Part shown: one piece after another, positions 6,387-38,347 of the stretch
Numbering within the stretch: position 1 is the stretch's first letter
Layout: each line of letters starts with the position of its first letter
DNA from: Patescibacteria group bacterium
GTDB taxonomy: Bacteria > Patescibacteriota > Patescibacteriia > Magasanikbacterales > GWA2-37-8
Assembly: GCA_041649475.1 (NCBI GenBank)
Contig: JBAZNA010000001.1
Location: 456,612 to 520,611, forward strand
Direction of reading: 5' to 3'
Length of the DNA: 64,000 nucleotides
Position numbers and translations under genes: made by a program
The notes under the pieces: model-generated
Seen by the model: the letters and a program-made list of their open reading frames with translations, nothing else
What the model was told of the DNA's origin: nothing
Databases searched by the model: none

Positions 6387-6463
6387 GGGTCGGTAGATCA
6401 ACTTGGTTAGATCGCTTCCCTGTCACGGAAGAGGTTGCGGGTTCGAGTCCCGTCCGACCCGCA
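6387..6463 (+). tRNA. tRNA-Asp (anticodon GTC)
   Basis: cloverleaf read by eye: acceptor GGGTCGG/CCGACCC, D-arm, anticodon stem CTTCC/GGAAG with loop CTGTCAC, T-arm GCGGG TTCGAGT CCCGT, discriminator G then CA. Confidence 0.85.
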
Positions 6464-8081: not shown

Positions 8082-8091
8082 ATATTTTATT

Positions 8092-8481
8092 TTACCGCTG
8101 ATCACCGTAATATGCAATCTTGACGATATTGATTAGATTAAAGAAGGCATCAAACGCTTCTTGGCGCTCCAACCGTTGTCCATATTTATTTTCATATAGC
8201 GCAATAAATTTTTTAAGTCCTTCTTCGGAAATGGTGTTATTATTATGGGGATCAGCGACTACTTTGGGTGGTTGTGGTGGTTTTGTTTTTGTTAATGCTT
8301 CATCGCTGTCACTGTCCCCGTCATCATCTCCGCTCTTTGTATCCTTTTTTTGCGGCTGCGCATCAGTTTTATTTTTTCTGTTACCGGTTAAGCATGTCCT
8401 TGGTTTTTGCACGGTGATTTTCTTCTTACTCAATTTATTTTTCTTAAATGAGTCTAATATTTCTTTTGGAATTTGTCCCAT
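8092..8481 (-). CDS. hypothetical acidic small protein
   Basis: ORF only; Asp/Ser-rich central stretch. Confidence 0.3.
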   Translation of the reverse strand: MGQIPKEILDSFKKNKLSKKKITVQKPRTCLTGNRKNKTDAQPQKKDTKSGDDDGDSDSDEALTKTKPPQPPKVVADPHNNNTISEEGLKKFIALYENKYGQRLERQEAFDAFFNLINIVKIAYYGDQR

Positions 8482-12689: not shown

Positions 12690-13556
12690 CTACAGGAAGA
12701 AGGTGACGCCGAAGTTTCTGGCCTCGTTGCGTTTGCGAGGAATCAGGTGAGTGCCACCGATCCAGACGCCCGGGCTACTGAATATGAAGGTGGTGCCGCC
12801 CCCGCTGAGGCTCAAGGCTCCCCGCATTGCTCCCTTAACATGGTAGTCCAGGTCCGGAGCGATCGCCTCGGGGAAGTAGTGGACGATGCTGGGATTGAGC
12901 CCGGCAAGAGTAGCCCACCGAGGATGAAGGGCGGCGATTAGCGGGAGCTCCTGTCCCACACCCATCAGACCCTTCTGATCCAGATCGGCGCGAGCTTCGG
13001 GGATCGGGCGTCCTCTGTACCTGAATCCCAGATTCACCACGGCCCACCGGAATCCGGCGGGGCGAGGTCTCGCGCCCTTGCGCACACTCACGACGGGTTT
13101 TGGTCCGTTGCGCTCGGTATCCGAGAAGGTCCTGGCCAGATCCTTCTTCCATCGGTCCTTGCCGAAGACATACTTGCAGGCTGCGATGTTGCGGGCGAGC
13201 GTTTTGAGGGGGTTGCCGGTCTCGTAGAGCAGGCAGAGGCAGAACGTCTCGGGAATGCCCTCTCGCTCAGGAGGGGGGGGCGGATCACCAACGGCGCGGA
13301 TCACCTGTTCGGTGATGCACTTGTCCTTCCACACCTTATCGTTGATCTCCAGGATGGTTCTGATCTGGTGATTGGGCGGTGCAAACGGCAGGCGATTGTA
13401 GACCTGCATGGCGATGTCTCCGCGGAGCAGCTCGTCGTCGCGGACACGCATCCAATCACCCAGGTCGATACCAAAGGCTTTGAATTCCCTATGGAGTGCC
13501 ACGACCAGCTCAACGGCCTTGGAGAGATCCCTCTCATCGTATGCTTTCTTCTTCAT
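12690..13556 (-). CDS. hypothetical protein encoded in a ~1-kb high-GC island
   Basis: long ORF in ~60% GC DNA with GC3-rich codon usage, inside AT-rich surroundings. Confidence 0.5.
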   Translation of the reverse strand: MKKKAYDERDLSKAVELVVALHREFKAFGIDLGDWMRVRDDELLRGDIAMQVYNRLPFAPPNHQIRTILEINDKVWKDKCITEQVIRAVGDPPPPPEREGIPETFCLCLLYETGNPLKTLARNIAACKYVFGKDRWKKDLARTFSDTERNGPKPVVSVRKGARPRPAGFRWAVVNLGFRYRGRPIPEARADLDQKGLMGVGQELPLIAALHPRWATLAGLNPSIVHYFPEAIAPDLDYHVKGAMRGALSLSGGGTTFIFSSPGVWIGGTHLIPRKRNEARNFGVTFFL

Positions 13557-19943: not shown

Positions 19944-22900
19944 ATGAATAAGAATATATCCAGGATACAAATTGTTGAATCCATACCCCGCTTCATAAAG
20001 GCGGTTGGTAATTATTTTATGGATTTTCTCGAGACGGACTTTCATAAAAGAAAATTACCACGTAGGAATATTGAACTTCATAATGAAAAAGGTTTACTTA
20101 CTGGTGTTAATCTGAACAAGTATCCGAGTTTTTATAAAGTGGCTTATAAACTCGTAAATAACTGTTTCAATAGTGATGTTTTGAATTCAGTTCAAAAAGG
20201 CGTATACAAGGCAGATATACCTAAATCACTGCTTGACTTAATAAAAAAGCAGGTGAATAAAGTTTCTAATGCTGAAATTTTAAATCTAACGAAGGAAATT
20301 GATGAGGCGGTTCATCAGTCCGCCCTCAAATACAAGGATGATTACTTGCAGGCGTTTAATTCGGTTATGGAAGACGCAGACAGGGTCTTCAAACGACGTA
20401 TTGTGTTGGACTTGGTGAAAAGTATTGAAAAATCACTGCAGAATACTAAGCTTGCCGACGAGAATGCAATATTCCAAATAGAGGAAGAACTTACGGATAT
20501 TTTAAAAAATAAAATTAAAGATGTTGTTTCAGAGGGGCTTAAACAGTTATTGAGCGGAGAGAAAACAAGTATAAAAAATCTTCTCAAGGATGTACTTGAT
20601 CTTGAAGAAGTTCGTACTAGTTTAACCAAGTTTTTTGACATGTTTAAAGTTTCTGATTTATTTAATGATTTACATGAGTTATATCAGAATTATAAGATTG
20701 AAGACAAGAAAGAATTTTATTTTTATTTTTATGACATTAGTTATCAAAAAAACAAGTATCCAATTTTTTATATACCTTTTTCGATCGAACGAAAAAGTGA
20801 TGAATTTTCTATAGTATTCGATTCACAAATATATATAAACAAGAAAGCACTCGCTTACATTGTACAGGAATATAATCGTGAACGTGATAGGAAAGGTTCT
20901 CTTCAGACGATAGATGATAGAATAATTTATCTTGCTGATCATACAGATGACCTTAATCTTATTTTGCAACAAACAATTACGGAAATAACCAATTTTTTTG
21001 GCCTCGAAGAGAATATTTTTGTAGCAAAGCCAGATATACAGACCAGCAAGAATTTATATATATCTTTAAGTACAAATGTGTATGTGGCTCTTTTCGATAA
21101 ATCTGATGAGGCTTTACTAAATGATTATGAGGACATATTAAATGCACCTGAAGGTAGCCCTTTAATGAATGGTTTTAAAATACTGATAGAAGATTTTATT
21201 AATAAGAATCCCGTGTCTATTCAGATACCTATTGCAGACGAGTGGGATGGAAAAAGCGTGGGTGAACGTCTGGTTTGTAAAAGTCCTATTCCTCTTAATA
21301 GTGAACAACAACAGATTCTCTCAGCCATCAATAATAATCAGTCTAAATACGTGCTTGTCGAGGGTCCCCCAGGAACAGGTAAAAGCCATACTATAACAGC
21401 AATTGTGTTTGATACAATTCTTAAAGGAAACTCCGTCTTAGTTCTTTCTGACAAAAAAGAAGCTCTAGACGTTGTGGAGAAAAATATTATTAATACCCTC
21501 AACAAAGTGCGGGTTGATGAAAAATTTCAGAACCCTCTTTTAAGATTGGGAAAAACTGGTAATACATATAACCAATTACTTACGCAGTCTTCAATTGATG
21601 GAATAACAGAACAGTTCCGCGTGGTAAAGAGTAAATATCCAAATCTCAATGAGCAGATTGATATTGCGATTACTGCTTTAAGAAACGGAGTAGAAAAACA
21701 AATTGGGGCTTACAAGAAGATATCCCTTGCAGATGTAAATGAGTTAGTCTCATTAAAACAACATTTTGATGAAAACGGATTTTGTATTGATATTGATGAA
21801 GCTATTAATAACCCTGATTCAGTAGTTGAACTCACAAAAATTCGGAGCATTCTCCTAAATTTAAAAAAGCAAATTAATACAAATAAGAAAATATCATTTA
21901 ATTTTAACTTCAAAAAAGAGCTTAATGAAGAAAGTTCAACGAACTTAGAATCAATTATTTCCGCACTTGAGGATATAAGAGAACTTGTTACTGATAATCC
22001 ACAGTTTCTAGAAGTTAAGCTTCTGATTTCTTATCAAAAAATTGTACAAGAGAACAAACCTAATGTAGAAAAATTGATTGGGGGTCTTGAAGATGTTTTT
22101 GAAATAGTTGATATCCTCACGAAAAATAAGAAATACACAGATCTTATTGGCATTCAAAAAAATAAATTTAATAGTTTGGCTGTTTTAAAAGATGTAACAC
22201 AGTATACCTTGAAATTGAAAGAAATGTTGGTCAAAGTTAAGTACTTTGCAAAAGACACTTTACCACTTTTAAATTTTTTTAAGCAATCATCCGAGTTGGA
22301 TGCCGTAGATTTGGAACAGTATATTGATTCAGCCAAACAGTTAAAAAGAGGTTTATTTGGCTATTTAGGAAAAGGTAAAGAGGTTCATGAGTTAAATCAG
22401 AATTTCCGAAAAAAATTTCCTTTATCAAAATTTGAAGATCCACATAAAAATTTAAAGGACCTTGAATCGATCCTGGCTATTTATAAATATATATTAGAAT
22501 TGAAAAAGGAAGTTCCTACTTGTGAGTATGATGACTGTGTGGATATTATAGTATCTCTTTTAAAGAAAGAAGATCTATTTTTTTCAGATGAGCAATTAGA
22601 TCGTCTGCATAAATTAGTTGAGAGTTTATCGAAGGTAGAAAAAAATATTGAAGATTTAAAAAGCGACATAAAGGATGCAACTCTTCAAGAATTAAAAAAT
22701 ATTGCGACCATTTTTGAAATAAACTCATTATATGAAGAGTTGGGTGAACTGATGGCTTCAGAAAAGGAATTGTTGGACCTAAATATTGACCTGGAAAAGA
22801 ATAAAAACCTTGAAGTTCTTATCCAAAAAAGTAATCTTGATAGACTTATAATTGAGATAAAGACGTGCAAAGAATATGTAGATACTCTTTTGGAGATTAA

Positions 22901-24713
22901 TGATGATATGGCATATATTAAGGGATCGTCTGATACTCATGAAAAAACTTTCTTTCTTGCTGGAATCAAAAATACTTCTTTCAATTCTTTGTATGAAAAT
23001 AAGCTTACTGAGATATCGGACCTTGAATTCGAGAAATTACTTCGTTTAATAACTCTTCACCAGGGACTAACATATGATTTTGATATCATTAAGGATTTGA
23101 ATTACAGGGATGCAACAAAACAAATTGAAAATATCGTAACAATGCAAATGACTTATTTAATGGATGGAAGATTTGTGGATTTCACTAGCAATAACAAAGC
23201 TGATGCACAATCACTTAGGCGAGTGATTAAAAATAAGATGCAATTTCCTAAGGAACAATTTTCCAAATTAAAAAATGCTTTTCCTTGTATTTTGGCCGGC
23301 ATTCGTGATTATGCCGAATACATACCGTTAGTACCGGAAATATTTGATTTGGTTATAATTGATGAAGCATCACAGGTGAGTATAGCCCAAGCCTTCCCGG
23401 CTCTCTTAAGAGCAAAAAAAATTGTAGTGCTTGGCGACAATCTTCAATTTAGTAACGTAAAATCAGCGTTGGCACGAGGAGATATAAACCAACAACATCT
23501 TGCAGGTTTGAAAGACGTATTTTTAAAAACCATTTCCAATGAAACAGACAAGGTAGTCCGTTTGGAAAAATTTAATATTAAAGTTTCAATACTCGATTTT
23601 TTAGGTTTTATTAATAACTACCGCACCAGTCTTAAAAAACATTTCCGTGGATATAGAGAACTTATTTCCTATTCAAATAAATTCTTCTACAAAAATAGTC
23701 TACAGGTCATGAAAGTTCGTGGCGTACCGATTAGTTCTGTAATCAAATTTTCACAAGTTGAACATGACGGGTTAGAAGAAGCTATCAAGAATACAAATGT
23801 ACCTGAAATTAATTTTATTATTTCCGAACTGAAAACACTTAAGGAACAGGGAAAAAGTTGTTCGGTGGGTATTATTACACCCCACACTAACCAGCAAGGG
23901 TTATTATATGAAAAGATAAGCAGCTTGCCGGAAGCAGATTATTTTTTTGATGTATTAAAACTCAAAATAATGACCTTTGATACATGTCAGGGAGAAGAAA
24001 TGGACATTGTTTTATATTCGATGGTAGCTACCAAGGCAGATGATAAATTGAATTATGTCTTTTCCACTAACCTTGAAAATATCGATCTGGACGATGATGA
24101 GGGTAAAATTAAGGCTCAGCGTCTTAATGTCGGTTTAAGTCGTGCTAAGGAGTGTATGCACTTCGTCCTCAGTAAACCTATAGATCAGTACACAGGAACG
24201 GTGAAAGAATTTCTCCAGCATTACAAAAATACTTTGGTTGAAGGTCAAAAAGAGTTTGATTCAAGTGCAGTAGATAATAATTCTGAAATGGAACCCCTCG
24301 TGCTTAATTGGTTTTATCAAACAAAATTTTGGGAAGAAAACAAAGGAACCGCTGAAATAATTCCACAGTTTGAGTTGGGCAAATATTTGAAACAACTTGA
24401 TAATAGTTATAAACATCCAAATTATAGAGTTGATTTTTTATTAGTGTATAACGATAATGATGGATTTCAACACAAGATTATTATTGAGTATGATGGTTTC
24501 CTTGAACATTTTGGACGTTCAATGGAAGTGGTTAATGGGGGAAATTATCAAGAATATTATTCGCCTGAAGATGTGTATCGGCAACATGTTCTTGAGGGTT
24601 ACGGTTATAAATTTATAAGGATAAACAAATTTAATCTGGGTGAAGATCCTATAACAACTCTTGATTCAAGAATACAAAATATAGTAAAAAAAAAACTTCA
24701 AACCACGAGATAA
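19944..24713 (+). CDS. SF1 (Upf1/DNA2-like) helicase, 1589 aa, with long N-terminal coiled-coil region and C-terminal DUF559-like (Vsr/REase-fold) endonuclease domain
   Basis: Walker A LVEGPPGTGKSHTIT, Walker B LVIIDEASQV, further helicase motifs LGDNLQ and CQGEEMDIV; C-terminus VDFLLVY...IIIEYDGFLEH...D..R...GY.FIRINKFN matches the DUF559 pattern. Confidence 0.8.
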   Translation: MNKNISRIQIVESIPRFIKAVGNYFMDFLETDFHKRKLPRRNIELHNEKGLLTGVNLNKYPSFYKVAYKLVNNCFNSDVLNSVQKGVYKADIPKSLLDLIKKQVNKVSNAEILNLTKEIDEAVHQSALKYKDDYLQAFNSVMEDADRVFKRRIVLDLVKSIEKSLQNTKLADENAIFQIEEELTDILKNKIKDVVSEGLKQLLSGEKTSIKNLLKDVLDLEEVRTSLTKFFDMFKVSDLFNDLHELYQNYKIEDKKEFYFYFYDISYQKNKYPIFYIPFSIERKSDEFSIVFDSQIYINKKALAYIVQEYNRERDRKGSLQTIDDRIIYLADHTDDLNLILQQTITEITNFFGLEENIFVAKPDIQTSKNLYISLSTNVYVALFDKSDEALLNDYEDILNAPEGSPLMNGFKILIEDFINKNPVSIQIPIADEWDGKSVGERLVCKSPIPLNSEQQQILSAINNNQSKYVLVEGPPGTGKSHTITAIVFDTILKGNSVLVLSDKKEALDVVEKNIINTLNKVRVDEKFQNPLLRLGKTGNTYNQLLTQSSIDGITEQFRVVKSKYPNLNEQIDIAITALRNGVEKQIGAYKKISLADVNELVSLKQHFDENGFCIDIDEAINNPDSVVELTKIRSILLNLKKQINTNKKISFNFNFKKELNEESSTNLESIISALEDIRELVTDNPQFLEVKLLISYQKIVQENKPNVEKLIGGLEDVFEIVDILTKNKKYTDLIGIQKNKFNSLAVLKDVTQYTLKLKEMLVKVKYFAKDTLPLLNFFKQSSELDAVDLEQYIDSAKQLKRGLFGYLGKGKEVHELNQNFRKKFPLSKFEDPHKNLKDLESILAIYKYILELKKEVPTCEYDDCVDIIVSLLKKEDLFFSDEQLDRLHKLVESLSKVEKNIEDLKSDIKDATLQELKNIATIFEINSLYEELGELMASEKELLDLNIDLEKNKNLEVLIQKSNLDRLIIEIKTCKEYVDTLLEINDDMAYIKGSSDTHEKTFFLAGIKNTSFNSLYENKLTEISDLEFEKLLRLITLHQGLTYDFDIIKDLNYRDATKQIENIVTMQMTYLMDGRFVDFTSNNKADAQSLRRVIKNKMQFPKEQFSKLKNAFPCILAGIRDYAEYIPLVPEIFDLVIIDEASQVSIAQAFPALLRAKKIVVLGDNLQFSNVKSALARGDINQQHLAGLKDVFLKTISNETDKVVRLEKFNIKVSILDFLGFINNYRTSLKKHFRGYRELISYSNKFFYKNSLQVMKVRGVPISSVIKFSQVEHDGLEEAIKNTNVPEINFIISELKTLKEQGKSCSVGIITPHTNQQGLLYEKISSLPEADYFFDVLKLKIMTFDTCQGEEMDIVLYSMVATKADDKLNYVFSTNLENIDLDDDEGKIKAQRLNVGLSRAKECMHFVLSKPIDQYTGTVKEFLQHYKNTLVEGQKEFDSSAVDNNSEMEPLVLNWFYQTKFWEENKGTAEIIPQFELGKYLKQLDNSYKHPNYRVDFLLVYNDNDGFQHKIIIEYDGFLEHFGRSMEVVNGGNYQEYYSPEDVYRQHVLEGYGYKFIRINKFNLGEDPITTLDSRIQNIVKKKLQTTR

Positions 24714-24742
24714 TAAATAATATACAGAATACGATTCTTGAC

Positions 24743-25405
24743 TTGCACAGTGGTGCCGCTAAAGAATGTCCTCAGTGTGGAGAAGTAAAGCCCATATCGG
24801 ATTTTAAAGATAAATCGCTTGTCACAGGCATCGGTAGATTTTGTTTGAAGTGTAAAACACATATGTCACGACGTGAGTATGTGCCGACATTCAATTGGAA
24901 AGGGGTGGAATTAAAGAGTGAATCGCCAAAAAGTGATATTAATAAACTTTTAAATTTTTCAGAGCACCCAGAGAAATACGCTACAGGGACCGATAGTGCG
25001 AATGAAAAACTAAGTTATTTGGAGAGCATTAAACATAAATTTAATGAAGAACAATTAACGACCTACACTGCGGCACGTAAAAGATTTGATCTGGCACTTG
25101 CCTTAAAAAAGGAAGCTATGGTCCAAAAGGTTGATCATAGTGCTATGTTAGTGGAGGCATTTAAAAACCACAGGTCGATAAAAATTCGCTATAAGGGTTC
25201 GTGGAGAATGATTGACCCCTATTCTCTCAATAATACTTATGTTGTAGCTTACTGTCACCTTGCACGTGATATTCGTACCTTTAGAGTGGATAGAATTCAA
25301 GATGTGGAACTTTTAGAGAGTTTTAATTTTAATAAATTTTTACAGACGACAGCAGAATCTAAACTTGTGGAAGCCCCTAAATATAAAGGATACCAGAGGT
25401 ACTGA
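24743..25405 (+). CDS. zinc-ribbon plus WYL-domain protein
   Basis: N-terminal CPQCGE...C.KC zinc ribbon; C-terminal IKIRYKGSWRMIDPYSLNNTYVVAYCHLARDIRTFRVDRIQDVELLE is a canonical WYL-domain signature. Confidence 0.7.
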   Translation: MHSGAAKECPQCGEVKPISDFKDKSLVTGIGRFCLKCKTHMSRREYVPTFNWKGVELKSESPKSDINKLLNFSEHPEKYATGTDSANEKLSYLESIKHKFNEEQLTTYTAARKRFDLALALKKEAMVQKVDHSAMLVEAFKNHRSIKIRYKGSWRMIDPYSLNNTYVVAYCHLARDIRTFRVDRIQDVELLESFNFNKFLQTTAESKLVEAPKYKGYQRY

Positions 25406-25451
25406 AGTTTACCTGCTTAATTACAAGTACAAAAATACTTTATTTCTCAAT

Positions 25452-28400
25452 ATGTCATTTGAATCGCGTTATAAAGATCTAAACAAAGAACAAAGACTTG
25501 CTGTTGATACTATCGATGGTCCTGTTTTAGTTATTGCTGGTCCAGGATCTGGTAAAACAGAGCTTTTAAGTTTACGTGTAGCAAACATCTTAAAAAATAG
25601 CGATGTATATCCCACAAATATTTTATGCCTTACGTTTACCGATTCAGCAGCAAAAAACATGATGGAACGTTTATCTGGACTTATAGGTATTAATGCACAT
25701 AAAGTAGCAATTTACACTTTCCACAGTTTTGCACTTAGTATAATGCACAGATTCCGAGAAGATTTTTATAACTATCAACAAATGAACTCTGCGGATGAAA
25801 TAATTCAGATCGAAACTCTATCTGATATTTTAGAGACAATACCACTTTCAGATGCCTTTAGTACAAAAGGACCCGATGGTACTTACTTGTACATCAAAAG
25901 TATAAGAGATAGAATTGACAAATTAAAAAAAGCCGGTATTACTCCTGAAGAGTATGCAAAAATATTAAAAATAAATGAAATTAGTTATACAACAATTGAA
26001 AAAATTATAATTCCTTTTTTTGAAGAGCGCATGTCGAAAAGCGTGCGAGAGAAAATTCCAGATTTATTAACAGAAATAAATTCAATTGTTTTACAACCTG
26101 GTGATATTCAGCACACAAGTTTTCTTGATTATAAAGAATTGATAATTTCATCTCTTACGTCGGCTTATGAAAAAGCAGTTGAAGAAAATTGTACAAAACC
26201 TTTAACCGTATGGAAAGAAGAATGGCTTAAGAGAGATTCGGATTCAAAAGAGTTGCACCTTAAGGATACACACCAACTAAAAAGAAACCAGACACTTGCA
26301 CAAATATACAATAAATATCAATCAGCCTTGGCCACCGCGGGTTATATTGATTTTAATGACATGATTATTGATGTTATTAATGTACTGAAAAAGAAAAAAG
26401 GTATTCTCGCACAACTTCAAGAACAGTATCAATATATTTTGGTTGATGAATTTCAAGATACAAATGATGCTCAAATGAGCATTATTCATCTTTTAGTTGA
26501 TAATCCGGTTAATGAAGGCAGGCCCAATATTATGGTCGTGGGTGATGATGATCAGTCTGTTTATAAATTTCAAGGTGCGGATATAAATAACATTTTGCAA
26601 TTCAAAAAAAGATATCCGGATACCAAATTAATTACTCTGGTTAAGAACTATCGGTCAACTCCTGCAATTGTTGATTTTGCACAATTGGTTATATCACAAG
26701 GGGAGGATAGACTATCTACGCGCTTTAAAGAAATAGAAAAGAAATTAGAAGCGGTTAATCCAAATATTCCTGATGGGGAAATTATTGCCCACACGTTCGA
26801 TACTGCGTTACATGAATATGCATATGTAGCACATGAAATTCAGGAAAAAATTGAACATGGAGTCAATCCAAACGATATAGCTGTGATTGCAAGGAACCAT
26901 AAGCACCTAGAAATAATTGCACGTTACCTTCAATCAAAGGTGATCCCAATAAGATATGAAAGGCAGCGGAACGTTTTAGAAGAATCGCACATTCAACAAC
27001 TTATTTTATTGGCGCGATTAATCCAGTCAATTGCTACTAAAAATATTAACTATCAAGATGACTTGTTACCGAGAGTTTTATCGTTTCCATTTTTTGATTT
27101 GGAACGTCAAACATTATGGGAATTATCAATTGAGGCACACAAGAATCAGAAAAATTGGATTAGTACGATGCTAGAAAATCATAACGTTAAGCTTCAGTCT
27201 GTAGCTAAATGGCTTATTGATTTAGCAACCCAGGCAGATACAAGCTCGATGGATTCATTGATTGATATAATGATAGGTCCACCAGAAAATAAAGATTTTT
27301 TTTCATCACCATTTAGACAGTTTTATTTTAGTAAAGAGAGATTTGAAACTGATCCGCGCAAATATCTACAATTCCTATCAAGCCTAAATACTTTTATAAA
27401 CACCGTCCGTTCTTACTGTGCCAAGAGCAAAGCACCACGTATATCAGATTTACTAGACTGTGTAGATGTATATCAAAAAAATTGTCTTCCTATTACAGAT
27501 ACAAGCCCTTATTTAAGTGGAACAGAAGCTGTTACGCTTTTGGTGGCACATAAAGCAAAAGGGCTTGAATTTGATACTGTCTTTGTGATTAACTGCCAAA
27601 ATAATATATGGGCAAAGTCACAAGGGGCAGACTTGATTGCATTTCCTAAAAATTTACCAATTGATTCATCTGGTGACACTTTTGATGATTATTTACGTAT
27701 ATTTTTTGTTGCGCTTACACGCGCTAAACACCATTTATATGTTACTAGTTACACTAGAGAGGAAAACGGAAAGGATGCCTTACAAGTTCCGTTCTTAGAA
27801 CCAAATCTTTTTAAAGATTTTAAACACAATATTCTTGCACATCATCAAGAAACTACTCTATCGGATACGATTGCAACATTAGAAAACAATGTATTTCCAA
27901 CGCTTGGGCCAATCGCGACAGATGAAAGGCCTGTTTTACAACCTCTGATAGATGAATATGCAATGAGTGTAACTCATTTAAATAACTTTCTCGATGTAAC
28001 CAAGGGAGGGCCTTACTATTTTTTTGAACAAAATTTTCTTCATTTTCCGCAAGCAAAAAGCGCTTCCATGGCATATGGAACAGCAATGCATAAAACTACG
28101 GAGTCTATATATGCGTACTTGAAAGAAAAAAATTTCTTACCCACACTTCAGGAGGTTGATTTAATGTTAAGTGAAAAAATGGAAAAAGAAGCGATGAGCG
28201 AATTAGATTTAACCAAATATTTAGAAAAGGGGAAAGATGCTTGGAAAGTATACTTTGATGTTGCTATAAAACATTTTGATGTTTCTCATTGGATAGAAAC
28301 TGACTTCAAATTACAGCACGTTATGATAGATAAAGCCCAAATTACCGGAAAAATAGATAAAATAATACCTAATGAAGAAGAAAAGTTACTAGAAGTTTAC

Positions 28401-28760
28401 GATTTTAAAACAGGAAAATATCACCGAGACTGGGATGGAAAGGATATATATAAAAAAATTCAATTATACAGTTATAAAAGACAGTTGATGTTTTATAAAT
28501 TATTGATAGAAGGCTCACGTGATTATTCAAAGTATACAGTACATAGGGGGTGTCTGGAATTTCTAACGCCAACAATGGATAATGAAATAGTGGTTCTACC
28601 ATACGATATCACGGATGAAGATGTTGAAAGATTGAAAAAAATAATTATTGCGGTGTATAAAAAGATACAGCGTTTAGATTTTCCAGATGTAAGCAAATAT
28701 GAACAATCGCTCGAGGGTATAGTTATGTTTGAAAACGATCTAATTGCCGGAAATATTTAA
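25452..28760 (+). CDS. UvrD/PcrA-like SF1 helicase fused to C-terminal RecB-type PD-(D/E)xK nuclease (AddA-like architecture)
   Basis: motif I VIAGPGSGKTELL, II YILVDEFQDTN, III MVVGDDDQSVYKFQGA, IV KNYRSTPAIV, VI VAHKAKGLEFDTVFV; nuclease motifs GKIDKIIP...EVYDFKTGKY and YKRQLMFY (QxxxY). Confidence 0.8.
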   Translation: MSFESRYKDLNKEQRLAVDTIDGPVLVIAGPGSGKTELLSLRVANILKNSDVYPTNILCLTFTDSAAKNMMERLSGLIGINAHKVAIYTFHSFALSIMHRFREDFYNYQQMNSADEIIQIETLSDILETIPLSDAFSTKGPDGTYLYIKSIRDRIDKLKKAGITPEEYAKILKINEISYTTIEKIIIPFFEERMSKSVREKIPDLLTEINSIVLQPGDIQHTSFLDYKELIISSLTSAYEKAVEENCTKPLTVWKEEWLKRDSDSKELHLKDTHQLKRNQTLAQIYNKYQSALATAGYIDFNDMIIDVINVLKKKKGILAQLQEQYQYILVDEFQDTNDAQMSIIHLLVDNPVNEGRPNIMVVGDDDQSVYKFQGADINNILQFKKRYPDTKLITLVKNYRSTPAIVDFAQLVISQGEDRLSTRFKEIEKKLEAVNPNIPDGEIIAHTFDTALHEYAYVAHEIQEKIEHGVNPNDIAVIARNHKHLEIIARYLQSKVIPIRYERQRNVLEESHIQQLILLARLIQSIATKNINYQDDLLPRVLSFPFFDLERQTLWELSIEAHKNQKNWISTMLENHNVKLQSVAKWLIDLATQADTSSMDSLIDIMIGPPENKDFFSSPFRQFYFSKERFETDPRKYLQFLSSLNTFINTVRSYCAKSKAPRISDLLDCVDVYQKNCLPITDTSPYLSGTEAVTLLVAHKAKGLEFDTVFVINCQNNIWAKSQGADLIAFPKNLPIDSSGDTFDDYLRIFFVALTRAKHHLYVTSYTREENGKDALQVPFLEPNLFKDFKHNILAHHQETTLSDTIATLENNVFPTLGPIATDERPVLQPLIDEYAMSVTHLNNFLDVTKGGPYYFFEQNFLHFPQAKSASMAYGTAMHKTTESIYAYLKEKNFLPTLQEVDLMLSEKMEKEAMSELDLTKYLEKGKDAWKVYFDVAIKHFDVSHWIETDFKLQHVMIDKAQITGKIDKIIPNEEEKLLEVYDFKTGKYHRDWDGKDIYKKIQLYSYKRQLMFYKLLIEGSRDYSKYTVHRGCLEFLTPTMDNEIVVLPYDITDEDVERLKKIIIAVYKKIQRLDFPDVSKYEQSLEGIVMFENDLIAGNI

Positions 28761-28777
28761 AATTTAATAAATATTGT

Positions 28778-29233
28778 ATGGTTCAAGTTTGGCCGTTATT
28801 AAAAGCATTCTTTCCGCTAATTGAGTTCGTCTTGATATTGTTGGTATTAAAAATAGTAGTGGAAGAAATATATTATAGATTTTTTTATAAAGATGAGTCT
28901 GTTTCAAAATTACGTCATCAGCCTACCCTAGAGGCTAAAAAATTAAATGAGGAACTTACAAAACTTGGTTATAATTCTGAATTAGAAAAATGGGACGGGC
29001 ACAAACATATTGATATTGCTGTTGTGCCTGCTAAAACTAACATAGAAATTGATGGGTCATATCATAATTACAGAGCTAGTTCTGCTTTGAGGGATTTGGA
29101 ACGAACATTTTATTCACTTGAAAAAGGTTATATCACGTTAAGGATACCAAACTCGTTAGTTAGATATAAACTGGCAGAAACTGTAAAATATGTAGACAAA
29201 ATTTTAAAGATAAGGACAAATGTCAATATCTGA
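28778..29233 (+). CDS. DUF559-like (Vsr/REase-fold) small endonuclease-domain protein
   Basis: IDIAVVP...IEIDGSYHN...RDLER...LEKGYITLRIPN parallels the helicase C-terminal DUF559 pattern. Confidence 0.5.
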   Translation: MVQVWPLLKAFFPLIEFVLILLVLKIVVEEIYYRFFYKDESVSKLRHQPTLEAKKLNEELTKLGYNSELEKWDGHKHIDIAVVPAKTNIEIDGSYHNYRASSALRDLERTFYSLEKGYITLRIPNSLVRYKLAETVKYVDKILKIRTNVNI

Positions 29234-29801
29234 GCAAACAATCCAGGATTTTAAAAAGCTGTACGCTGAAAAATATCACAAGGAGATTTCTAGTGGAGAA
29301 GCGGAAATGGCGATAGGTAATCTTGTAGGGCTTGTTGAAGTGCTGTTAAAAATAGACGAAGAAGAAGTAGAGAGAAAAAGGCGACTGAAGTATGAACCAA
29401 AGGGATTTCATTTGAATGATGGGACTTATAATTGCGGAATTTGTGGAACAAGTGTTTCTGGAGATTCGTGCTGGTATGACAAATTTGGAATTAAATGTAT
29501 GATCTGTCAACGCGCTATTAATAAACATATAATTCCCGGTTCGCTCTGTTATAAAGATACCTGGTACAAAATATGGGAATTAGAACATTATTATGATCTG
29601 GATTCTTCTGCAGTAAGACAATTGCTCCGGGAAGGTAAGCTCAAAGCACGGATTATCCCTAGAGAAAACGGACGCCCATATTTTTATCTCTTTATAATAA
29701 GAGAAAACCAAGGCGTGCTTCATAAGAAACCAAAGTTAATCCTTAGACATGAAGAAAATGGATATGTCTCAGTTAAATATCCTAAATTAACGCTTGGCTA
29801 A
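29220..29801 (+). CDS. hypothetical Zn-finger protein
   Basis: CGICGTSVSGDSCWYDKFGIKCMICQ; start overlaps upstream stop (translational coupling). Confidence 0.45.
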   Translation: MSISEQTIQDFKKLYAEKYHKEISSGEAEMAIGNLVGLVEVLLKIDEEEVERKRRLKYEPKGFHLNDGTYNCGICGTSVSGDSCWYDKFGIKCMICQRAINKHIIPGSLCYKDTWYKIWELEHYYDLDSSAVRQLLREGKLKARIIPRENGRPYFYLFIIRENQGVLHKKPKLILRHEENGYVSVKYPKLTLG

Positions 29802-29830
29802 ACAATAAAAGTAAAAAAGTAAACTTTGGT

Positions 29831-30331
29831 ATGGTAGATATTAAAATAATTGAAGGTGATATTACAACACTAAGTGTGGATGCAATAATTAACGCTGCCA
29901 ATGAGACACTTTTGGGAGGTGGTGGTGTTGATGGGGTAATTCATTACGTTGCTGGTCCGGAGTTAAAAGAAGAATGTGAGACTTTGGGAGGATGCAAAAA
30001 AGGTGAGGCAAAAATTACTAAGGGCTATAATTTACCTGCCAAATACGTGATCCATACTGTTGGTCCAGCGTATGGTTTTGAGGGTGGTCTGGAAAAGAAA
30101 ATCTTGCAGGATTGCTACATTAACAGTTTAGAAGTTGCGAAGAAAAATAATTTACGGACCGTGGCTTTCCCAGCTATCTCTACAGGCGCATTTCGGTATC
30201 CAAAGGATATGGCAGCAAAAATTGCAATGGAATGTGTTTCCGATTATACTAGCCAATACCCTGATTCATTTGATCAGATAATATTTGTAATGTTCAGTGA
30301 ATTTGATTACCTTGTGTATAAAAGTTTATAA
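29831..30331 (+). CDS. Macro-domain protein (ADP-ribose binding/hydrolase, YmdB-like)
   Basis: IEGDITTLSVDAIINAANETLLGGGGVDGVIH...VIHTVGP...VAFPAISTGAFRYP are classic macro-domain motifs. Confidence 0.85.
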   Translation: MVDIKIIEGDITTLSVDAIINAANETLLGGGGVDGVIHYVAGPELKEECETLGGCKKGEAKITKGYNLPAKYVIHTVGPAYGFEGGLEKKILQDCYINSLEVAKKNNLRTVAFPAISTGAFRYPKDMAAKIAMECVSDYTSQYPDSFDQIIFVMFSEFDYLVYKSL

Positions 30332-30333
30332 AT

Positions 30334-30744
30334 ATGAGTATTTTAGCCACTTTGGAACAAAAACAATTAATTTCAAAGGAGACCGTAGAATTATTCACCG
30401 TATCCGTGATTATATTTTTCTTGTCATTGATTTTGTTTAGACTTCATTTTTATTTGGCGGCATTGGGTTTATTGCTTATGGTACTGGGTGGATTGGCAAA
30501 CTTATATGTAATTGATTACAACAAGCTTCGTATGCCTGTTTTGAATCTAAGTCGGCGGCAACTGGCTGAGGCAAAGAGGAGGCAGCCATCACGCAGATTT
30601 TGTAAATTGGACAGAAGCACAAAATTAGCCTGGCTGGCAGACAGGTTTCAGGTTGGTAAGGGTGTTTATAGCTTGGGTGATTTTATTATGTATTTTGGTG
30701 TGGTTGTTGTAGTCCCTGAGGTCGTGTTTAGATTTTTACCTTAG
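30334..30744 (+). CDS. hypothetical membrane protein
   Basis: hydrophobic helices. Confidence 0.4.
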   Translation: MSILATLEQKQLISKETVELFTVSVIIFFLSLILFRLHFYLAALGLLLMVLGGLANLYVIDYNKLRMPVLNLSRRQLAEAKRRQPSRRFCKLDRSTKLAWLADRFQVGKGVYSLGDFIMYFGVVVVVPEVVFRFLP

Positions 30745-30759
30745 TTACGAGACGGTCAT

Positions 30760-31515
30760 ATGTTTTTTAAGGCAAACATGCAAGATAAACTTTCCGTAAA
30801 ACTTTTTACGGATGTTGGCATGGGCGAAATATTTATGGCCCGCTTAATTCACCTCCACGACCATGTACTTAAGGATTTTGGTATGAGGAAGACCGATATT
30901 GATTGGCGGAATGTTGGAAAAGACCTCTTCGCTGTCATATTTGATGGATTAGTGCCAGCATTCAGCGATCTACGGACATTGCGCACAGAATGGAACGACC
31001 TCAAGGTGCCGGAACTCAAAAAAATAAAGACCGTAAAAAATGTATTTGGTAATCTAATTATAGCCTTCAAGGATCGTTTTCAGGGTGTAGTTTTGAAAAT
31101 GGGATATCCAATCGGATTCTTGTTCAAAGACGACTCAAAATTTAAAAACGGACTTACGAATTTCGTTATTAGTTACCCGAGCATACACTCTGACTTTATT
31201 AATGTGTTTCGAGAAGATCGCATTTGGCTAAAAAGGATGACTGACGTTAGGAATGTTCTTATTGAACATACATCAGGAAAACCCGAGGCTAAAATCGAGG
31301 AGTTGAATCCCTACTTAACTCCCGACAACGCTGCGGTACTGTTTGATAATTGCTGGCGCACTATGGAGGACTATCTTTTGGTGTTCACAAAGGATTTGAT
31401 AGATCCAAAATACGGCATGGAACTTCTAGAGTTGCAGGAATATCGGCAAGACAAGAATTATCCCCAGCGGGTTGGGTGGTTTATCAAACCCGAAAGACTC
31501 ATTAAGTCTGAATAG
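30760..31515 (+). CDS. hypothetical protein
   Basis: 251-aa ORF. Confidence 0.5.
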   Translation: MFFKANMQDKLSVKLFTDVGMGEIFMARLIHLHDHVLKDFGMRKTDIDWRNVGKDLFAVIFDGLVPAFSDLRTLRTEWNDLKVPELKKIKTVKNVFGNLIIAFKDRFQGVVLKMGYPIGFLFKDDSKFKNGLTNFVISYPSIHSDFINVFREDRIWLKRMTDVRNVLIEHTSGKPEAKIEELNPYLTPDNAAVLFDNCWRTMEDYLLVFTKDLIDPKYGMELLELQEYRQDKNYPQRVGWFIKPERLIKSE

Positions 31516-32325: not shown

Positions 32326-32356
32326 AAGTTCCCACTTCGTCCCATGCACCCCGCAA
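32326..32356. repeat. 31-bp direct repeat copy 1 (AAGTTCCCACTTCGTCCCATGCACCCCGCAA)
   Basis: identical to 33309-33339. Confidence 0.8.
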
Positions 32357-32409: not shown

Positions 32410-33219
32410 TTAAGCACCATGACATTTTTTAAATTTTTTTGGTTTGCCATCATTTTTTTTCGCACCACACCAACAAGGATCATTGCGACCAATCTTTTTT
32501 TTGGAACCAGATTTTGTAGAAGGTTCCGATGGCTTTTTGCCTAGCCATATTGGACCAATAACACCGATAACTCCAGCCGGTATTTGCATTTTTAGTGAGG
32601 GATAATTAGGGATCAAAGTTTTTAACACCTCGTGGGTTATTTGCCGTATGGCTGCTAAATCGGCATCACCTACTGGAGACCGCGGATTCTGATTATCGTA
32701 AGATGTCCACCCTAATGAATTTTCATGCGCCAACTTCGCATACGCTTCATCTAATAGAGGATCTACATGAGCACCACCACCTTGGTCAGCAACAAAGAGA
32801 ATCAAGTCTTTTCTCGTAAATTCTTTACTGTAGCCATCCTTTATTACAATTTGATTCCACCATTCTGAGAAGGGTACTAACCTTCTAGAGTCATTAGGAT
32901 TCTGATCTAACCAGGGAACATATGAAGGATTCGCCCCTCCAGCCGGCACACCATAAAGACTGCAAAAAGGGCTAATCAACACTTTATCTGGAGGACTATA
33001 ACTCGTATCAAAAAAATTGGTATCTTTCTTGCCAATTTGACCCAAAACTGAATAGGAAAACTTGCTATCATGCAATAAAATGCGTAGGTCGAGTGCAAGA
33101 TAACGTGCATAGTCCCGTTCGCCCTGGTCGTATTTATTGCAGTGTCCCTGCATTGACTTTAATTTTTGCTCAAAAATTTTTAAAATGTCATCAGATTTTT
33201 GTGCTATTCTTGTTACCAT
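32410..33219 (-). CDS. SEC-C-motif protein with uncharacterised N-terminal domain
   Basis: C-terminal PCWCGAKKNDGKPKKFKKCHG equals the SecA C-terminal metal-binding (SEC-C) motif. Confidence 0.6.
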   Translation of the reverse strand: MVTRIAQKSDDILKIFEQKLKSMQGHCNKYDQGERDYARYLALDLRILLHDSKFSYSVLGQIGKKDTNFFDTSYSPPDKVLISPFCSLYGVPAGGANPSYVPWLDQNPNDSRRLVPFSEWWNQIVIKDGYSKEFTRKDLILFVADQGGGAHVDPLLDEAYAKLAHENSLGWTSYDNQNPRSPVGDADLAAIRQITHEVLKTLIPNYPSLKMQIPAGVIGVIGPIWLGKKPSEPSTKSGSKKKIGRNDPCWCGAKKNDGKPKKFKKCHGA

Positions 33220-33308: not shown

Positions 33309-33339
33309 AAGTTCCCACTTCGTCCCATGCACCCCGCAA
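33309..33339. repeat. 31-bp direct repeat copy 2, followed by a GNRA-loop hairpin
   Basis: identical 31-mer; downstream TTAAGGTAACC-GCAA-GGGCTACCTTAA. Confidence 0.8.
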
Positions 33340-34097: not shown

Positions 34098-34493
34098 TCA
34101 GCACTTGTAGATCACAACCGGGATGTCATACCACATCAGCGGAGTGCGCTGGTCAATCTGCCGCAAGTGGCGTTTGGCCAAAAGGATGGCCTTCTCCCAG
34201 TTGTCAATCCCCAGTTGGGGATAGGGATGGAACATGCAGAACTCCCCGCGATGTCCGCATCCTCTCGGGTACCCTTCGGCCATGTGTTCGTGCCTTTCAG
34301 CATAGGATTCCTCGTAACCGGGGCCCATGTTGTACTGCGCCAGGGCCGTGTTGAAGTAGAAGAAGAACTCCAGTCCGAGGCTCCGCGCGACCAACACCCC
34401 TTGGGTGATCTCCCGCACCTCCTCCAGGTGCTGCATGTGCATGGCACGGAAGTGGTTCTTCACTTCCTCAAGAATCTCTTGGGTTGTCATCAC
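34098..34493 (-). CDS. hypothetical protein (high-GC island 2)
   Basis: ORF in ~60% GC DNA. Confidence 0.45.
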   Translation of the reverse strand: MMTTQEILEEVKNHFRAMHMQHLEEVREITQGVLVARSLGLEFFFYFNTALAQYNMGPGYEESYAERHEHMAEGYPRGCGHRGEFCMFHPYPQLGIDNWEKAILLAKRHLRQIDQRTPLMWYDIPVVIYKC

Positions 34494-34665
34494 TGCCTCC
34501 TTTGTAGAGATTTAAACCGGATTATTTATCCCATTTTTTTGATTTTTTGTCAATCTCGCTGTAACTTCTTGACTACCGCCCGGTTATATGTTATCTTGTG
34601 AAGTTACCAAGGTTGGCAACCAACCGCGGCATGTTCGCGGTTTGCAACTTTAAGGAGGTATTGCG

Positions 34666-35214
34666 ATGATCGAGAAGACGGACGGAATGAAGAGGGTTGA
34701 TCTGACCTTTGCGCGTAATTGCCACCTCTGTGGCAAGCGGAGCGTTACCCGTTGGTGCCCGAATTGCACCAACAAGGCCATTTCGGCCGTTGCCACCGGT
34801 CAGATCGGAACGACCCAGCCGGGCGAGGAAATCAAACGCCTCCTGTCGCCCCCGCTGGAGATGCCGCTCAACGTTCTGATCCCGCGGCTCAACCAGCTGA
34901 TCGGCAGGCCGGTTGATCTCGAGCAGATGTTGTCCATGGAGGCCTCCTTTGAGCGCTTCGTGGACCAGCCGATGTTCAGTATGGGAGAGACGGGGCCGAC
35001 GGTAACACAAGATACCCACTCCTTCGTCGCTGACGACGGCGGGGTACCCGAAACCGTGCCGCCCGAAGTTCCTTCTGATGGCACGCGACGCTACGGCTCC
35101 AACTCCCAGCCGTTTCCGGTTGGGGTGAGCGGACCGCTCACCGCGGTTCACGTGGATGATGCGGCTGACGGCGGTGCTGTCATCACCACCATCATCCCGG
35201 GAGACAGCAGGTAG
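34666..35214 (+). CDS. hypothetical Zn-ribbon protein, paralog A (FARNCHLCG...RWCPNC...LLSPPLEMP...PMF)
   Basis: ribosome-binding site AAGGAGG; shares motif set with 36037-36576. Confidence 0.5.
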   Translation: MIEKTDGMKRVDLTFARNCHLCGKRSVTRWCPNCTNKAISAVATGQIGTTQPGEEIKRLLSPPLEMPLNVLIPRLNQLIGRPVDLEQMLSMEASFERFVDQPMFSMGETGPTVTQDTHSFVADDGGVPETVPPEVPSDGTRRYGSNSQPFPVGVSGPLTAVHVDDAADGGAVITTIIPGDSR

Positions 35215-35299
35215 TTCGTTTCGTTGCCCTTTTTCCGAGTGCGCCCGCAGAGACCGTTTTTACAGGTCTCCTGGGCGCTTCTTTTTTTAATTAAAATTT

Positions 35300-35536
35300 T
35301 TATTTTGCGTTGGACAATATTTTTTTAATTCCTTCCCAGAGCATGTTGCCATAGCCGACGATGCGGTCGTTTACCACCAGTGCCGGAACTCCGCGCACGT
35401 TGTAGTACATAATCTCGCTGATCTTTGAGACCTTTTCAACAGGAACGTCTTTGTTAAGCTGTCTAAGCGCGTATTTAACATTGTCTTCCAGCTTCTGATA
35501 ATCCGGATGGCCGAAACCTAGAATTTTTATGGTCAT
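35300..35536 (-). CDS. thioredoxin-fold small protein lacking the CxxC motif
   Basis: length and pattern MTIKILGFG...GVPALVVNDRIV resemble the Thioredoxin_3 family but contain no cysteines; AT-rich unlike flanks. Confidence 0.35.
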   Translation of the reverse strand: MTIKILGFGHPDYQKLEDNVKYALRQLNKDVPVEKVSKISEIMYYNVRGVPALVVNDRIVGYGNMLWEGIKKILSNAK

Positions 35537-35707
35537 AGTTTGCAGTTAAATGTAGTTAAATATTATACCATTTTAGTAGGAGTTTATATAATCATTATAA
35601 CATTGACTTTTAAAAAAGCAAGTGGTAATGTTCTATGTTGCGAAAACAACAACCGATCCGTCGGCAAAAAGCCGCGGATCAAGCCACTTTTACGAGGAGG
35701 CAAGGGT

Positions 35708-36026
35708 CATGAGAGACAATTACAATCGTAGTGTGACAGTCGGGCTTCTCCCACAGTCGGAGGAAGATGCAGATCAGTTGGAGCTGACGGCGATGAAGTT
35801 CCTCAAGCAGATCCACATCATCATGTCGCCCGAGGAGCTCATCGCTATGATGGACAAGCACCTGGGCGTGAAGATCTCGTTTCCGCTGGCTTGGAACGCC
35901 TTCGTCCTGTTCCGCAAGCGGCAGGAGGAGGAGAAGAAGAAGGAGGACGCCGTTCCGACGGCCAGCATGCGCGAGATCACCCTGAAGTTCGGGAAGTGGC
36001 CGAGGGACAAGCAGGACAAGCAGTAG
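35708..36026 (+). CDS. hypothetical protein ending WPRDKQDKQ
   Basis: GAGGAGG ribosome-binding site before ATG at 35708. Confidence 0.45.
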
Positions 36027-36036
36027 GAGGCCAGCC

Positions 36037-36576
36037 ATGGCGCCAGGCATGGATTTCGCTTTCGCCCGCAGATGCCATATCTGCGGTGGCGGCAAGGGCA
36101 GACAGTTCATCCTCCGCTGGTGCCCCAGCTGCATAGAGACCTATGGTGAAGGTCGCCGGCCGGTCTTTGAGATGACCGAGACGGAAAGAAATCAGGAGTT
36201 GGCATTGCTCCTGTCTCCGCCCTACGAGATCCCGTTCGCTTACATCATCCGCAGAGTCATGGAACTCAAGGGTGAGACGATGGACTTCGCTGATGTCTGT
36301 CTGTTGGAAGGTCAGCTGGAGTCCGGGCACGACCGGCCCATGTTCGTCTGGCCGCCCAATACGGCCAGGACCAAGGTCGTGGTGGAGCAGGAGGAAATCG
36401 TTGAACTCACGGGCGGTCATCGCCAGCAAGTGGAAACGCTTCGGGGCGTGCCCCATGTGCCGATTCTGAAGGAACCGCCTTCAGACGGGGAAGATGCTGT
36501 GCCGACATCCGCTGGTCCGTACGACATAACCATGCCGCACGGGCCGTGGCCGAGGGACAAGAAGCCGGCCAGGTAA
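36037..36576 (+). CDS. hypothetical Zn-ribbon protein, paralog B (FARRCHICGGG...RWCPSC...LLSPPYEIP...PMF...WPRDKK)
   Basis: motif-for-motif similarity to 34666-35214; ribosome-binding site AGTAGGAGGCCAG. Confidence 0.5.
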   Translation: MAPGMDFAFARRCHICGGGKGRQFILRWCPSCIETYGEGRRPVFEMTETERNQELALLLSPPYEIPFAYIIRRVMELKGETMDFADVCLLEGQLESGHDRPMFVWPPNTARTKVVVEQEEIVELTGGHRQQVETLRGVPHVPILKEPPSDGEDAVPTSAGPYDITMPHGPWPRDKKPAR

Positions 36577-36612
36577 GCCGGCCAGGTAAAAAAGAAGTAG
36601 GAGGCCAGTCAT

Positions 36613-36657
36613 GGCGCCGAGGGATTGAGCTTGCTCTCCCCGGCGCCCATTTTTTTA
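36613..36657 (+). terminator. rho-independent terminator closing high-GC island 2
   Basis: GGCGCCGAGGG...CCCCGGCGCC hairpin plus T7. Confidence 0.6.
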
Positions 36658-37952: not shown

Positions 37953-38347
37953 TGGTGGAGGTGGCGAGAGTTGAACTCGCGTCTAGATAACCTTGACTAA
38001 ACCTTCTACATACTTAGTGTCCCTTGTTGTTTCGCCAGCGCGATAGAAGGGAACTAAAATTGCGCTGACTATCCGTGCTTTATTTCGCTTGGCCCCAGGC
38101 GGAGAAAGAGCCAAACTACTCCCGGTGAGTGACACCGCTTTCAGTTACCGGGTGTAGCTGGAGCGATGGGCTAAAGCAATTAAGCTAAAGCCGGAGCTAA
38201 ATTGAAGGCACCAAACATGTTGGCGACAGCAACCTTAGCTTTTGATAATAAGTTGGCACTTATTAGTTTTGCTCCACTATTTACGAGGCCGGAGCCGCCT
38301 CGGTATGCCAGTTTAGCCGTAAGCTTCTATCAAAGCCCGGCACCCCC
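37953..38347 (-). ncRNA. ssrA: tmRNA (ssrA), approximate ends
   Basis: minus-strand 3' end GCGAGTTCAACTCTCGCCACCTCCACCA (T-arm plus encoded CCA); 5' GGGGGUG forming a 7-bp acceptor with G3:U70; internal tag ORF ...FNLAPALA-stop; adjacent to smpB. Confidence 0.6.

Follow-up and report, generated by a model that had tools for sequence, protein, structure and literature searches.

The question raised by this locus is whether eight tightly packed, co-directional genes (g1–g8) in the genome of a member of the Patescibacteria (assembly GCA_041649475.1) encode one defence or DNA-surveillance system, as proposed in a preliminary description of the sequence, or whether only some of them belong together. 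The genes lie at positions 19944–31515 of the window, the whole stretch of 64,000 nucleotides (nt) of contig JBAZNA010000001.1 that was analysed; it belongs to a 633-kb metagenome contig (ENA ERZ27247363). Few recognised defence systems are thought to occur in Patescibacteria, whose mobile elements have barely been described. Comparison with a set of about 35 related loci (designated below by L-numbers) showed that, at the level of sequence, the helicase-nuclease gene g1 and the following open reading frame (ORF) with a WYL domain, g2, represent one evolutionary unit, separated by nothing other than a −1 shift of frame at a conserved A9–11 run. The core of the locus is considered, with slightly better than even confidence, to be this one recoded gene together with a nuclease partner, both of them cargo of an integrated serine-recombinase element, and to act most likely in defence or inter-element conflict.

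The features of g1 and of the tail encoded downstream of it in the window are as follows (aa, amino acids; SF1, superfamily 1).

19944..24713, + strand: g1 frame-0 product, 1589 aa, SF1 Upf1/DNA2-like helicase with a Vsr/DUF559-like endonuclease
g1 aa 1–~440: family-specific N-terminal domain
g1 aa 474–481 (21363–21386): Walker A
g1 aa 1138–1144 (23355–23375): motif II, DEASQ
g1 aa ~1490–1565 (24423–24626): Vsr/DUF559-like endonuclease
24686..24695, + strand: A10 run at the 3′ end of g1, GTA AAA AAA AAA, putative recoding site
24695..25405, + strand: −1-frame tail of 236 aa, with linker TSNHEIINNIQNTILD, zinc ribbon, helical middle and WYL domain
24767–24778 and 24842–24853: CPQC and CLKC pairs of the tail zinc ribbon
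25178–25225: core of the tail WYL domain

Searching with aligned WYL homologues yielded 7 loci in genomes and 23 in metagenomes, most of them from Patescibacteria (Minisyncoccia, Kaiser-, Andersen- and Buchananbacteria). A homologue of g1 (67–84% identity; 54% in the outlier L052) is located immediately 5′ of the WYL ORF in 28 of 28 loci with upstream sequence, and co-occurrence among the eight genes is this strict only for g1 and g2. Single-ORF versions of 1821–1822 aa are present in L020, L021 and L032 and in protein cluster P0123. A sister family of about 1525 aa (46–62% identity to g1), found in Patescibacteria, an Aenigmarchaeota archaeon, Planctomycetota, Zixibacteria and Syntrophaceae, carries the zinc ribbon of the g2 N-terminus in frame after the Vsr domain (48–58% identity, E ~1e-10), and has Zn_ribbon_Top1, a topoisomerase-type zinc ribbon, where g2 has WYL.

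The gene g2 had been described as an independent gene whose product has a zinc ribbon in place of a helix-turn-helix (HTH) domain. The WYL domain was confirmed by a family match (4e-13) behind a CxxC...CxxC ribbon, and no HTH family was found in g2; however, g2 proved to be the −1-frame continuation of g1, its earlier-called start (24743) being within the tail. Since an in-frame C-terminal copy of this zinc ribbon is present in the sister family, the ribbon represents the conserved C-terminal tail of the helicase. The WYL fold of the tail is closest to the domains of DriD, CapW and PafBC that bind single-stranded DNA (ssDNA). With these proteins and BrxR, g2 shares the WYL (Sm-like SH3 barrel) domain, but it has neither their winged HTH nor their WCX dimerisation module, and its zinc ribbon is shared with the WYL-less sister helicases. 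The WYL domain here would be an appendage of a helicase and not part of a transcription factor; WYL accessory domains are also carried by PIF1-type helicases. Among database ‘WYL domain-containing proteins’ of 126–206 aa (P0019–P0093), many are truncated calls from internal codons; such short calls are an annotation artefact of the recoding site, the true N-terminus having no start codon. Because of the A-run, gene callers split the gene or cut it short, and many database WYL proteins of 160–225 aa would be the shifted C-terminus of an 1820-aa enzyme.

In all 26 split loci (25 loci and the outlier L052), the 3′ end of g1 consists of GTA or CTC followed by A9–11, at the same codons, and the shift needed to enter the tail is −1 in every case. 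The phase of the run suits such a shift, with A AAA AAA in frame 0. Frame 0 terminates 0–6 codons past the run; the −1 frame opens just a few codons before it and reads KKK-LYNHEIVSNIQSTIRDLRSG-AAKVCPQCGE..., its linker matching the linker of the in-frame fusions. Over the 18 nt after the run and before the g1 stop, the non-consensus fraction by −1-frame codon position is 0.10, 0.09 and 0.37, and the aligned loci show the −1 frame to be under purifying selection from the A-run onward. A conserved initiation codon for the tail was not found among the 25 loci: the first ATG, GTG or TTG is located beyond the first Cys pair (CxxC) in 11–12 of them, and the first possible start in L005 is codon 212 of 247. 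Elsewhere in g1 homologues no A-run is longer than 8, none of the 29 other KKK tripeptides is encoded entirely by AAA, and only 61% of Lys codons are AAA. The same A10 is present in an independent assembly of the same organism (L001). A candidate 9-bp hairpin begins 7 nt 3′ of the run and is paired in 80% of sequence-pair cells, versus 27–41% in slid controls.

The conserved run, the open −1 frame, the codon periodicity and the missing starts together indicate programmed −1 frameshifting or transcriptional slippage. The sequence A AAA AAA is a classic −1 slippery heptamer, and RNA-polymerase slippage is efficient at runs of 9 A/T (PMC5009743). The locus would encode a predicted short form of 1589 aa and a predicted long form of 1820 aa, the latter with the predicted trans-frame peptide VKKKTSNHEIINNIQNTILDLHSGAAK. 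A literature search for WYL in combination with frameshifting returned nothing relevant. A similar arrangement is known for dnaX (tau/gamma), in which a slippery run of Lys codons near a domain boundary gives a short and a long isoform, by −1 frameshifting at A AAA AAG in E. coli and by transcriptional slippage at a 9-nt run in Thermus (PMC5009743). Unlike dnaX, the predicted long form here is the shifted product, in which a sensor/DNA-binding tail is added to the helicase-nuclease. Recoding kept over at least 26 lineages would represent a clean, testable case of isoform control.

The assignment of g1 to SF1 helicases was confirmed by matches to AAA_11/AAA_12 above threshold, and a large variable insert of ~650 aa was found to separate Walker A (aa 474) from motif II (aa 1138) within the helicase. 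The C-terminal DUF559/Vsr domain, also proposed earlier, was supported by the motif VDFLL..IIEYDG..EH..YRQ..LEGYGY.F.RIN (D...ExD..H...R...G), invariant in 29 homologues, but its family matches fell below Pfam thresholds (MTES_1575, 1.9e-4; DUF559, 0.035). The N-terminus, described as a long coiled coil, is predicted instead to be an alpha/beta domain of about 430 aa with a helical stalk and many invariant acidic residues; the prediction is confident, with a predicted local distance difference test score of ~90 over residues 50–385. In a check for DUF4011, no match to this family was obtained for g1 aa 1–450 even at E<=5. The N-domain defines 433 clusters at 50% identity and begins within ~90 residues of the N-terminus in the longer (~1,300–1,700-aa) matches, many of the matches being shorter proteins or fragments. 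PADLOC models cover none of the six distant N-domain members (~1,400–1,560 aa) examined.

The third position, directly after the WYL ORF, is represented in 15 of ~25 loci by a gene of ~496 aa, located 3–10 nt after the WYL stop. It encodes a DUF2779 nuclease with a Cas4-like PD-(D/E)xK N-terminus and an RNase_H_2/DUF2779 DEDD-type exonuclease C-terminus, the architecture of DUF2779/COG2251 solo-Cas4-DEDD exonucleases (e.g., MMSYN1_0389); two active nuclease domains are predicted for DUF2779-type nucleases (PMC13621843, PMC3985635). The sister family has the same partner. Other PD-(D/E)xK proteins take the third position in 3 further loci, and the alternatives found there include a bare PD-(D/E)xK protein (L008, L035) and DUF2130 (L004, L010). 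The third slot contains a gene for a UvrD-PD-(D/E)xK protein in the window and in one other lineage (L020/L032), with 27–42% identity. In the window this gene is as follows.

25452..28760, + strand: g3, UvrD-type helicase fused to a PD-(D/E)xK nuclease, 1102 aa from ATG

The helicase-nuclease fusion in g3 was confirmed by matches to UvrD-helicase, UvrD_C and PDDEXK_1. The family of g3 is ubiquitous in Patescibacteria (>6,500 matches), and its closest relatives (59–66% identity, Magasanikbacteria) are single genes in the conserved core context ATP synthase – g3 – DciA – MreBC, which speaks against g3 as a regular member of a system. The GC content at third codon positions (GC3) of g3 is 0.25, versus 0.42–0.48 in core genes of the host, and fits low-GC Magasanikbacteria. 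Because a housekeeping family is combined with island-like GC3, the most suitable reading of g3 is that of a captured xenologue, a copy of a Patescibacteria housekeeping gene outside its core context; it may stand in for the usual nuclease. UvrD-Cas4 fusions have been tied to defence contexts (PMC5704561). Relocation of the host's own UvrD is unlikely, since the GC3 of 0.25 fits the island and not the host. Scores of g3 were 118–127 bits for AddA (cut-offs 707–860), 135 bits for RecB (cut-off 696) and 297 bits for PcrA (cut-off 911), and no AddB or RecC/RecD partner gene was found in the eight-gene block.

Other nucleases were also observed around the module. In L007 (65–3418), a Cas4-like/RNase-H-like nuclease of COG2251 type is fused to its own SF1 helicase (1117 aa). 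Exonuclease VII large subunits with an unusual N-terminal HRDC domain follow the module in L014 (12187–13800) and L020 (13735–15144), and XseA/XseB follow it in L035.

In the proposed mechanism, two isoforms would arise, either from slippage of RNA polymerase on the A-run or from −1 frameshifting by ribosomes on A AAA AAA: a short one consisting of the helicase and the Vsr nuclease and a long one with the zinc ribbon and WYL added. The tail would not be a transcription factor; it would bind nucleic acid (probably ssDNA) or a ligand, and target or gate the enzyme. The helicase would translocate on foreign or damaged DNA, the Vsr-like domain would nick it, and the adjacent PD-(D/E)xK enzyme, usually the Cas4-like/DEDD exonuclease and here the UvrD-RecB-type helicase-nuclease, would resect it. 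The role would be defence or inter-element conflict by a logic similar to that of Hhe or Hachiman, to the benefit of both the mobile element and the host.

A defence role is suggested by profile matches and genomic context. The best library matches of g1 are anti-phage helicases (PDC-S37, MkoA/MkoC, Hhe and ProA in PADLOC/NCBIfam), all of them sub-threshold and within the helicase core. The module is surrounded by mobile-element and defence-flavoured genes and is AT-rich relative to the host; neighbours in other loci include GmrSD, T5orf172, RVT_1, AAA_15/21, Schlafen AlbA_2, Mrr_cat, NOV_C and NADAR, along with ordinary housekeeping genes. About 12 related loci have serine recombinases in their flanks, frequently in divergent orientation to g1. 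The earlier view of the locus as horizontally acquired and built on helicase-nuclease proteins with a WYL domain was retained.

Comparison with named systems confirmed that none of them matches, PADLOC/NCBIfam assigning none of the eight proteins to such a system. Hhe (NF042953, PDLC02194) is a single-protein anti-phage system composed of DUF4011, an SF1 helicase and a Vsr-type endonuclease. It has in common with g1 a giant polypeptide with an N-terminal accessory domain, an AAA_11/AAA_12 helicase and a C-terminal nuclease of DUF559/MTES_1575 type, as well as a location in accessory genome regions. However, g1 reaches 77.7 bits against the NF042953 cut-off of 2000, in two stretches confined to the helicase core, and its PADLOC Hhe match (7e-17) is partial. 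Unlike Hhe, g1 has no detected DUF4011, another family of N-domain, a recoded zinc ribbon-WYL tail and a nuclease partner gene. The best profiles for g1 are ProA (NF058533) and PDC-S37, with 4e-38 and 3e-33, collinear over the helicase including the insert. The ProA match has 130.5 bits versus a cut-off of 1500 and covers profile positions 646–1555 of 1903; the PDC-S37 match covers positions 298–1194 of 1550. The N- and C-terminal parts of both profiles are unmatched. The ProA and PDC-S37 matches of six distant g1 relatives are likewise partial, and a literature search on these two systems found no paper. In the case of Gabija, g3 matches GajB models (2.9e-82) by generic helicase similarity, and no GajA was found among the eight proteins. 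For Mokosh, MkoA/MkoC cover only the helicase of g1, and no PLD domain is present in the eight proteins; for DarTG, a Macro domain is present, with no DarT/DUF4433 in the block. The module would work like helicase-nuclease systems of Hhe or Hachiman type but fails membership in Hhe, ProA, PDC-S37, Mokosh, Gabija and DarTG.

Several observations weigh against a recoded defence module. No member of the family is claimed by PADLOC/NCBIfam models, and no matches were found in IMG/VR with the WYL alignment or in GenBank phages with tblastn of g1. The predicted model of the N-domain matched nothing in the PDB, with no solved homologue. For the candidate hairpin, no covariation beyond that of shuffles was detected, and RNAalifold gave no consensus on the recoding region; RNA-polymerase slippage needs no downstream RNA structure. 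The window is without the usual DUF2779 partner, and g3, as a member of a housekeeping family, may have become the neighbour of the module by chance or through the insertion site. Finally, several loci and the sister family have the helicase gene as a fixed component of a cassette with genes for a terminase-like protein, a ParB-methylase and a recombinase, which could mean element maintenance.

The last of these points leads to the main rival, in which the module serves the mobile element itself in replication, recombination, end processing or packaging, or represents a DNA-repair pair similar to MrfAB, with no immune role. A conserved cassette, which recurs in L007, L009, L020, L052 and the sister loci L035–L040, lies to the left of the helicase gene, with divergent coupling between the two. 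Its genes encode a 280–294-aa protein, a ParB-N6 methylase, a small HTH protein, a terminase-like ATPase-nuclease and a serine recombinase; the 294-aa gene has a homologue in the element of the window. In addition, the DUF2779 proteins have a DEDD domain similar to the repair exonuclease MrfB (PMC13621843), the module is followed by XseA in L014, L020 and L035, and a homologue on a Priestia plasmid adjoins Y-family polymerase/YolD genes, where no informative partners were found. However, the module also occurs without the cassette, beside a bare recombinase or with none within 10 kb (L004, L005, L008, L014, L049), and the element in the window has its own replication protein of D5 type. Sensor tails that can be swapped (WYL versus the topoisomerase zinc ribbon) and exchangeable nuclease partners are typical of conflict systems, and the nearest profile matches are anti-phage helicases. 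A purely element-serving or repair role is therefore considered unlikely, at roughly one chance in four.

Defence or inter-element conflict remains the preferred reading. A bolder form of it, given somewhat less than an even chance, is that the isoform pair produced by recoding, together with the Cas4-like exonuclease, represents a new anti-phage or anti-plasmid system, built on a helicase-nuclease family that is widespread and unnamed and is carried by mobile elements in Patescibacteria; in-frame relatives of this family are found in archaea and other phyla. If true, it would be the first case of an immune effector with a sensor domain dosed by recoding. The module as such is conserved and portable and has three parts, a helicase-Vsr nuclease, a DNA-binding tail that can be swapped and a Cas4-like exonuclease; current defence finders miss it.

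The frame break itself could have another nature, being a phase-variable A-tract switch at the DNA level, or the tail could result from independent or re-initiated translation at non-canonical starts. In restriction and defence genes, contingency loci are classically formed by homopolymeric tracts, in-frame versions of the gene exist, and candidate starts before the zinc ribbon are present in 13 of 25 loci. However, these candidates are TTG or GTG and never ATG, are missing in half of the loci, and in the window the ‘TTG start’ is the conserved Leu codon of DLHSG. A switch is opposed by the uniform −1 state of the 26 split loci and by the run length, which varies by substitution of the next base (CTT to ATT or ACT) and not by indels; the in-frame lineage differs by GTT in place of GTA, and conserved −1-frame coding starts at the run, before the g1 stop. 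Such explanations are improbable, and programmed recoding is retained.

The remaining genes of the block are as follows.

28778..29233, + strand: g4, stand-alone DUF559-like protein with a hydrophobic N-terminus
29220..29801, + strand: g5, Cys-rich protein with a weak HTH_17-like C-terminus
29831..30331, + strand: g6, YmdB-type Macro domain protein, the last gene of island-like composition
30334..31515, + strand: g7 (DUF5317 membrane protein) and g8 (no family), of host-like composition

The eight ORFs were found as described, co-directional, with spacing of −14 to +46 nt and one overlap. The DUF559-like nature of g4 was confirmed by Pfam (1.9e-5, above cut-off), and that of the Macro protein g6 by a match of 1.5e-42 and by NCBIfam, which assigned it to YmdB-type O-acetyl-ADP-ribose deacetylases (200.1 versus a cut-off of 200). 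The protein g5, described as a Zn-finger protein, is Cys-rich and matches no significant family; of the two genes described as unknown, g8 has no family, but g7 matches DUF5317. The protein g4 starts with a hydrophobic segment of ~30 residues, which suggests a membrane-anchored nuclease of Vsr fold. The proposal that all eight genes form one novel system is very improbable: the tight co-directional packing with one overlap, the AT-rich composition common to g1–g6, the recurrence of g5 near the module in L009 and L019, the UvrD-PD-(D/E)xK gene after the module in L020/L032 and a single ADP-ribose-related NADAR gene among neighbours elsewhere are outweighed by the presence of g4, g6, g7 and g8 homologues in none of the related loci, the core context of the nearest g3 relatives, the host-like composition of g7 and g8, and the generic YmdB type of the Macro protein, which has no DarT partner. 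Genes g4–g8 are unrelated neighbouring cargo or host genes; the real partners, as distinct from these bystanders, are g1 with its tail and the nuclease.

The block had been placed just downstream of a tRNA-associated element, but it is located inside a tRNA-Asp-associated island, whose other recognised features are as follows.

6387–6462, + strand: tRNA-Asp, left end of the island
6423–8117, − strand: large serine recombinase, 3′ end overlapping tRNA-Asp
8895–10373, − strand: D5/DUF5906 primase-helicase
10749–11633, − strand: o294, homologue of the 280–294-aa gene divergent from the helicase in related cassettes

GC3 is 25–33% in g1–g6, 0.40–0.45 in g7–g8 and 42–48% in core genes, so that by composition g1–g6 are inside the island and g7–g8 outside. 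A search for the far att site revealed no repeat of the tRNA-Asp 3′ half in the window, and the right border of the island is therefore placed by composition only. Among the genes of the element with no known family, PHROGs recognised only the D5-type primase. Promoter and terminator scans of the AT-rich window gave counts equal to chance.

The overlap between the serine recombinase gene and tRNA-Asp consists of the 40 nt next to the recombinase stop and falls in the 3′ half of the tRNA, part of which therefore seems to be supplied by the element. At 37953–38347, the opposite border of the variable region adjoins a tmRNA gene, with an unusual 25-residue tag, and smpB; tRNA and tmRNA/smpB are both classic hot spots of integration. 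At least three compositional classes make up the mosaic of the island, and within its AT-rich part an ORF of 288 aa (12690–13556, − strand) has 60% GC and GC3 0.74, with no Pfam or PHROG match.

In related loci, the cassette, the helicase-nuclease and the DUF2779 nuclease together form elements of ~12 kb without capsid genes, which may represent a satellite-like class in Patescibacteria. In L037, GmrSD/T5orf172 genes are located at one border and purine genes at the other. A small ORF of 60–73 aa lies just 5′ of the helicase start or overlaps it (L035, 7815–7997; L049, 9808–10008); it is annotated as HTH_17/MerR-type in L035 and L049/L050, and family F6 (L009, L013, L021) is presumed to be the same protein. 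No such ORF precedes the helicase in the window.

To the right of the block, a perfect 31-nt direct repeat (32326–32356 and 33309–33339) surrounds an ORF of 269 aa (32410–33219, − strand), for which a borderline SEC-C motif is the only Pfam signal. Two short-read assemblies end exactly at this repeat; the region could represent the insertion of a small unit or the duplication of a regulatory sequence. At ~45800–56200, a block of ~10 kb has 60–69% GC versus ~42% in the genome, and long ORFs (up to 1050 aa) overlap on its two strands, with no Pfam family among the ORFs searched; it may be foreign DNA or a chimeric contig join. Several small ORFs with GC3 of 0.73–0.79 are located at 34098–36618, just before the rplT-rpmI-infC-ssrA-smpB core block. 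Imperfect repeats in this region (35972–36044 and 36522–36618), ~550–575 nt apart and including a conserved AGGAGG-ATG start region, suggest tandem paralogous genes of foreign origin.

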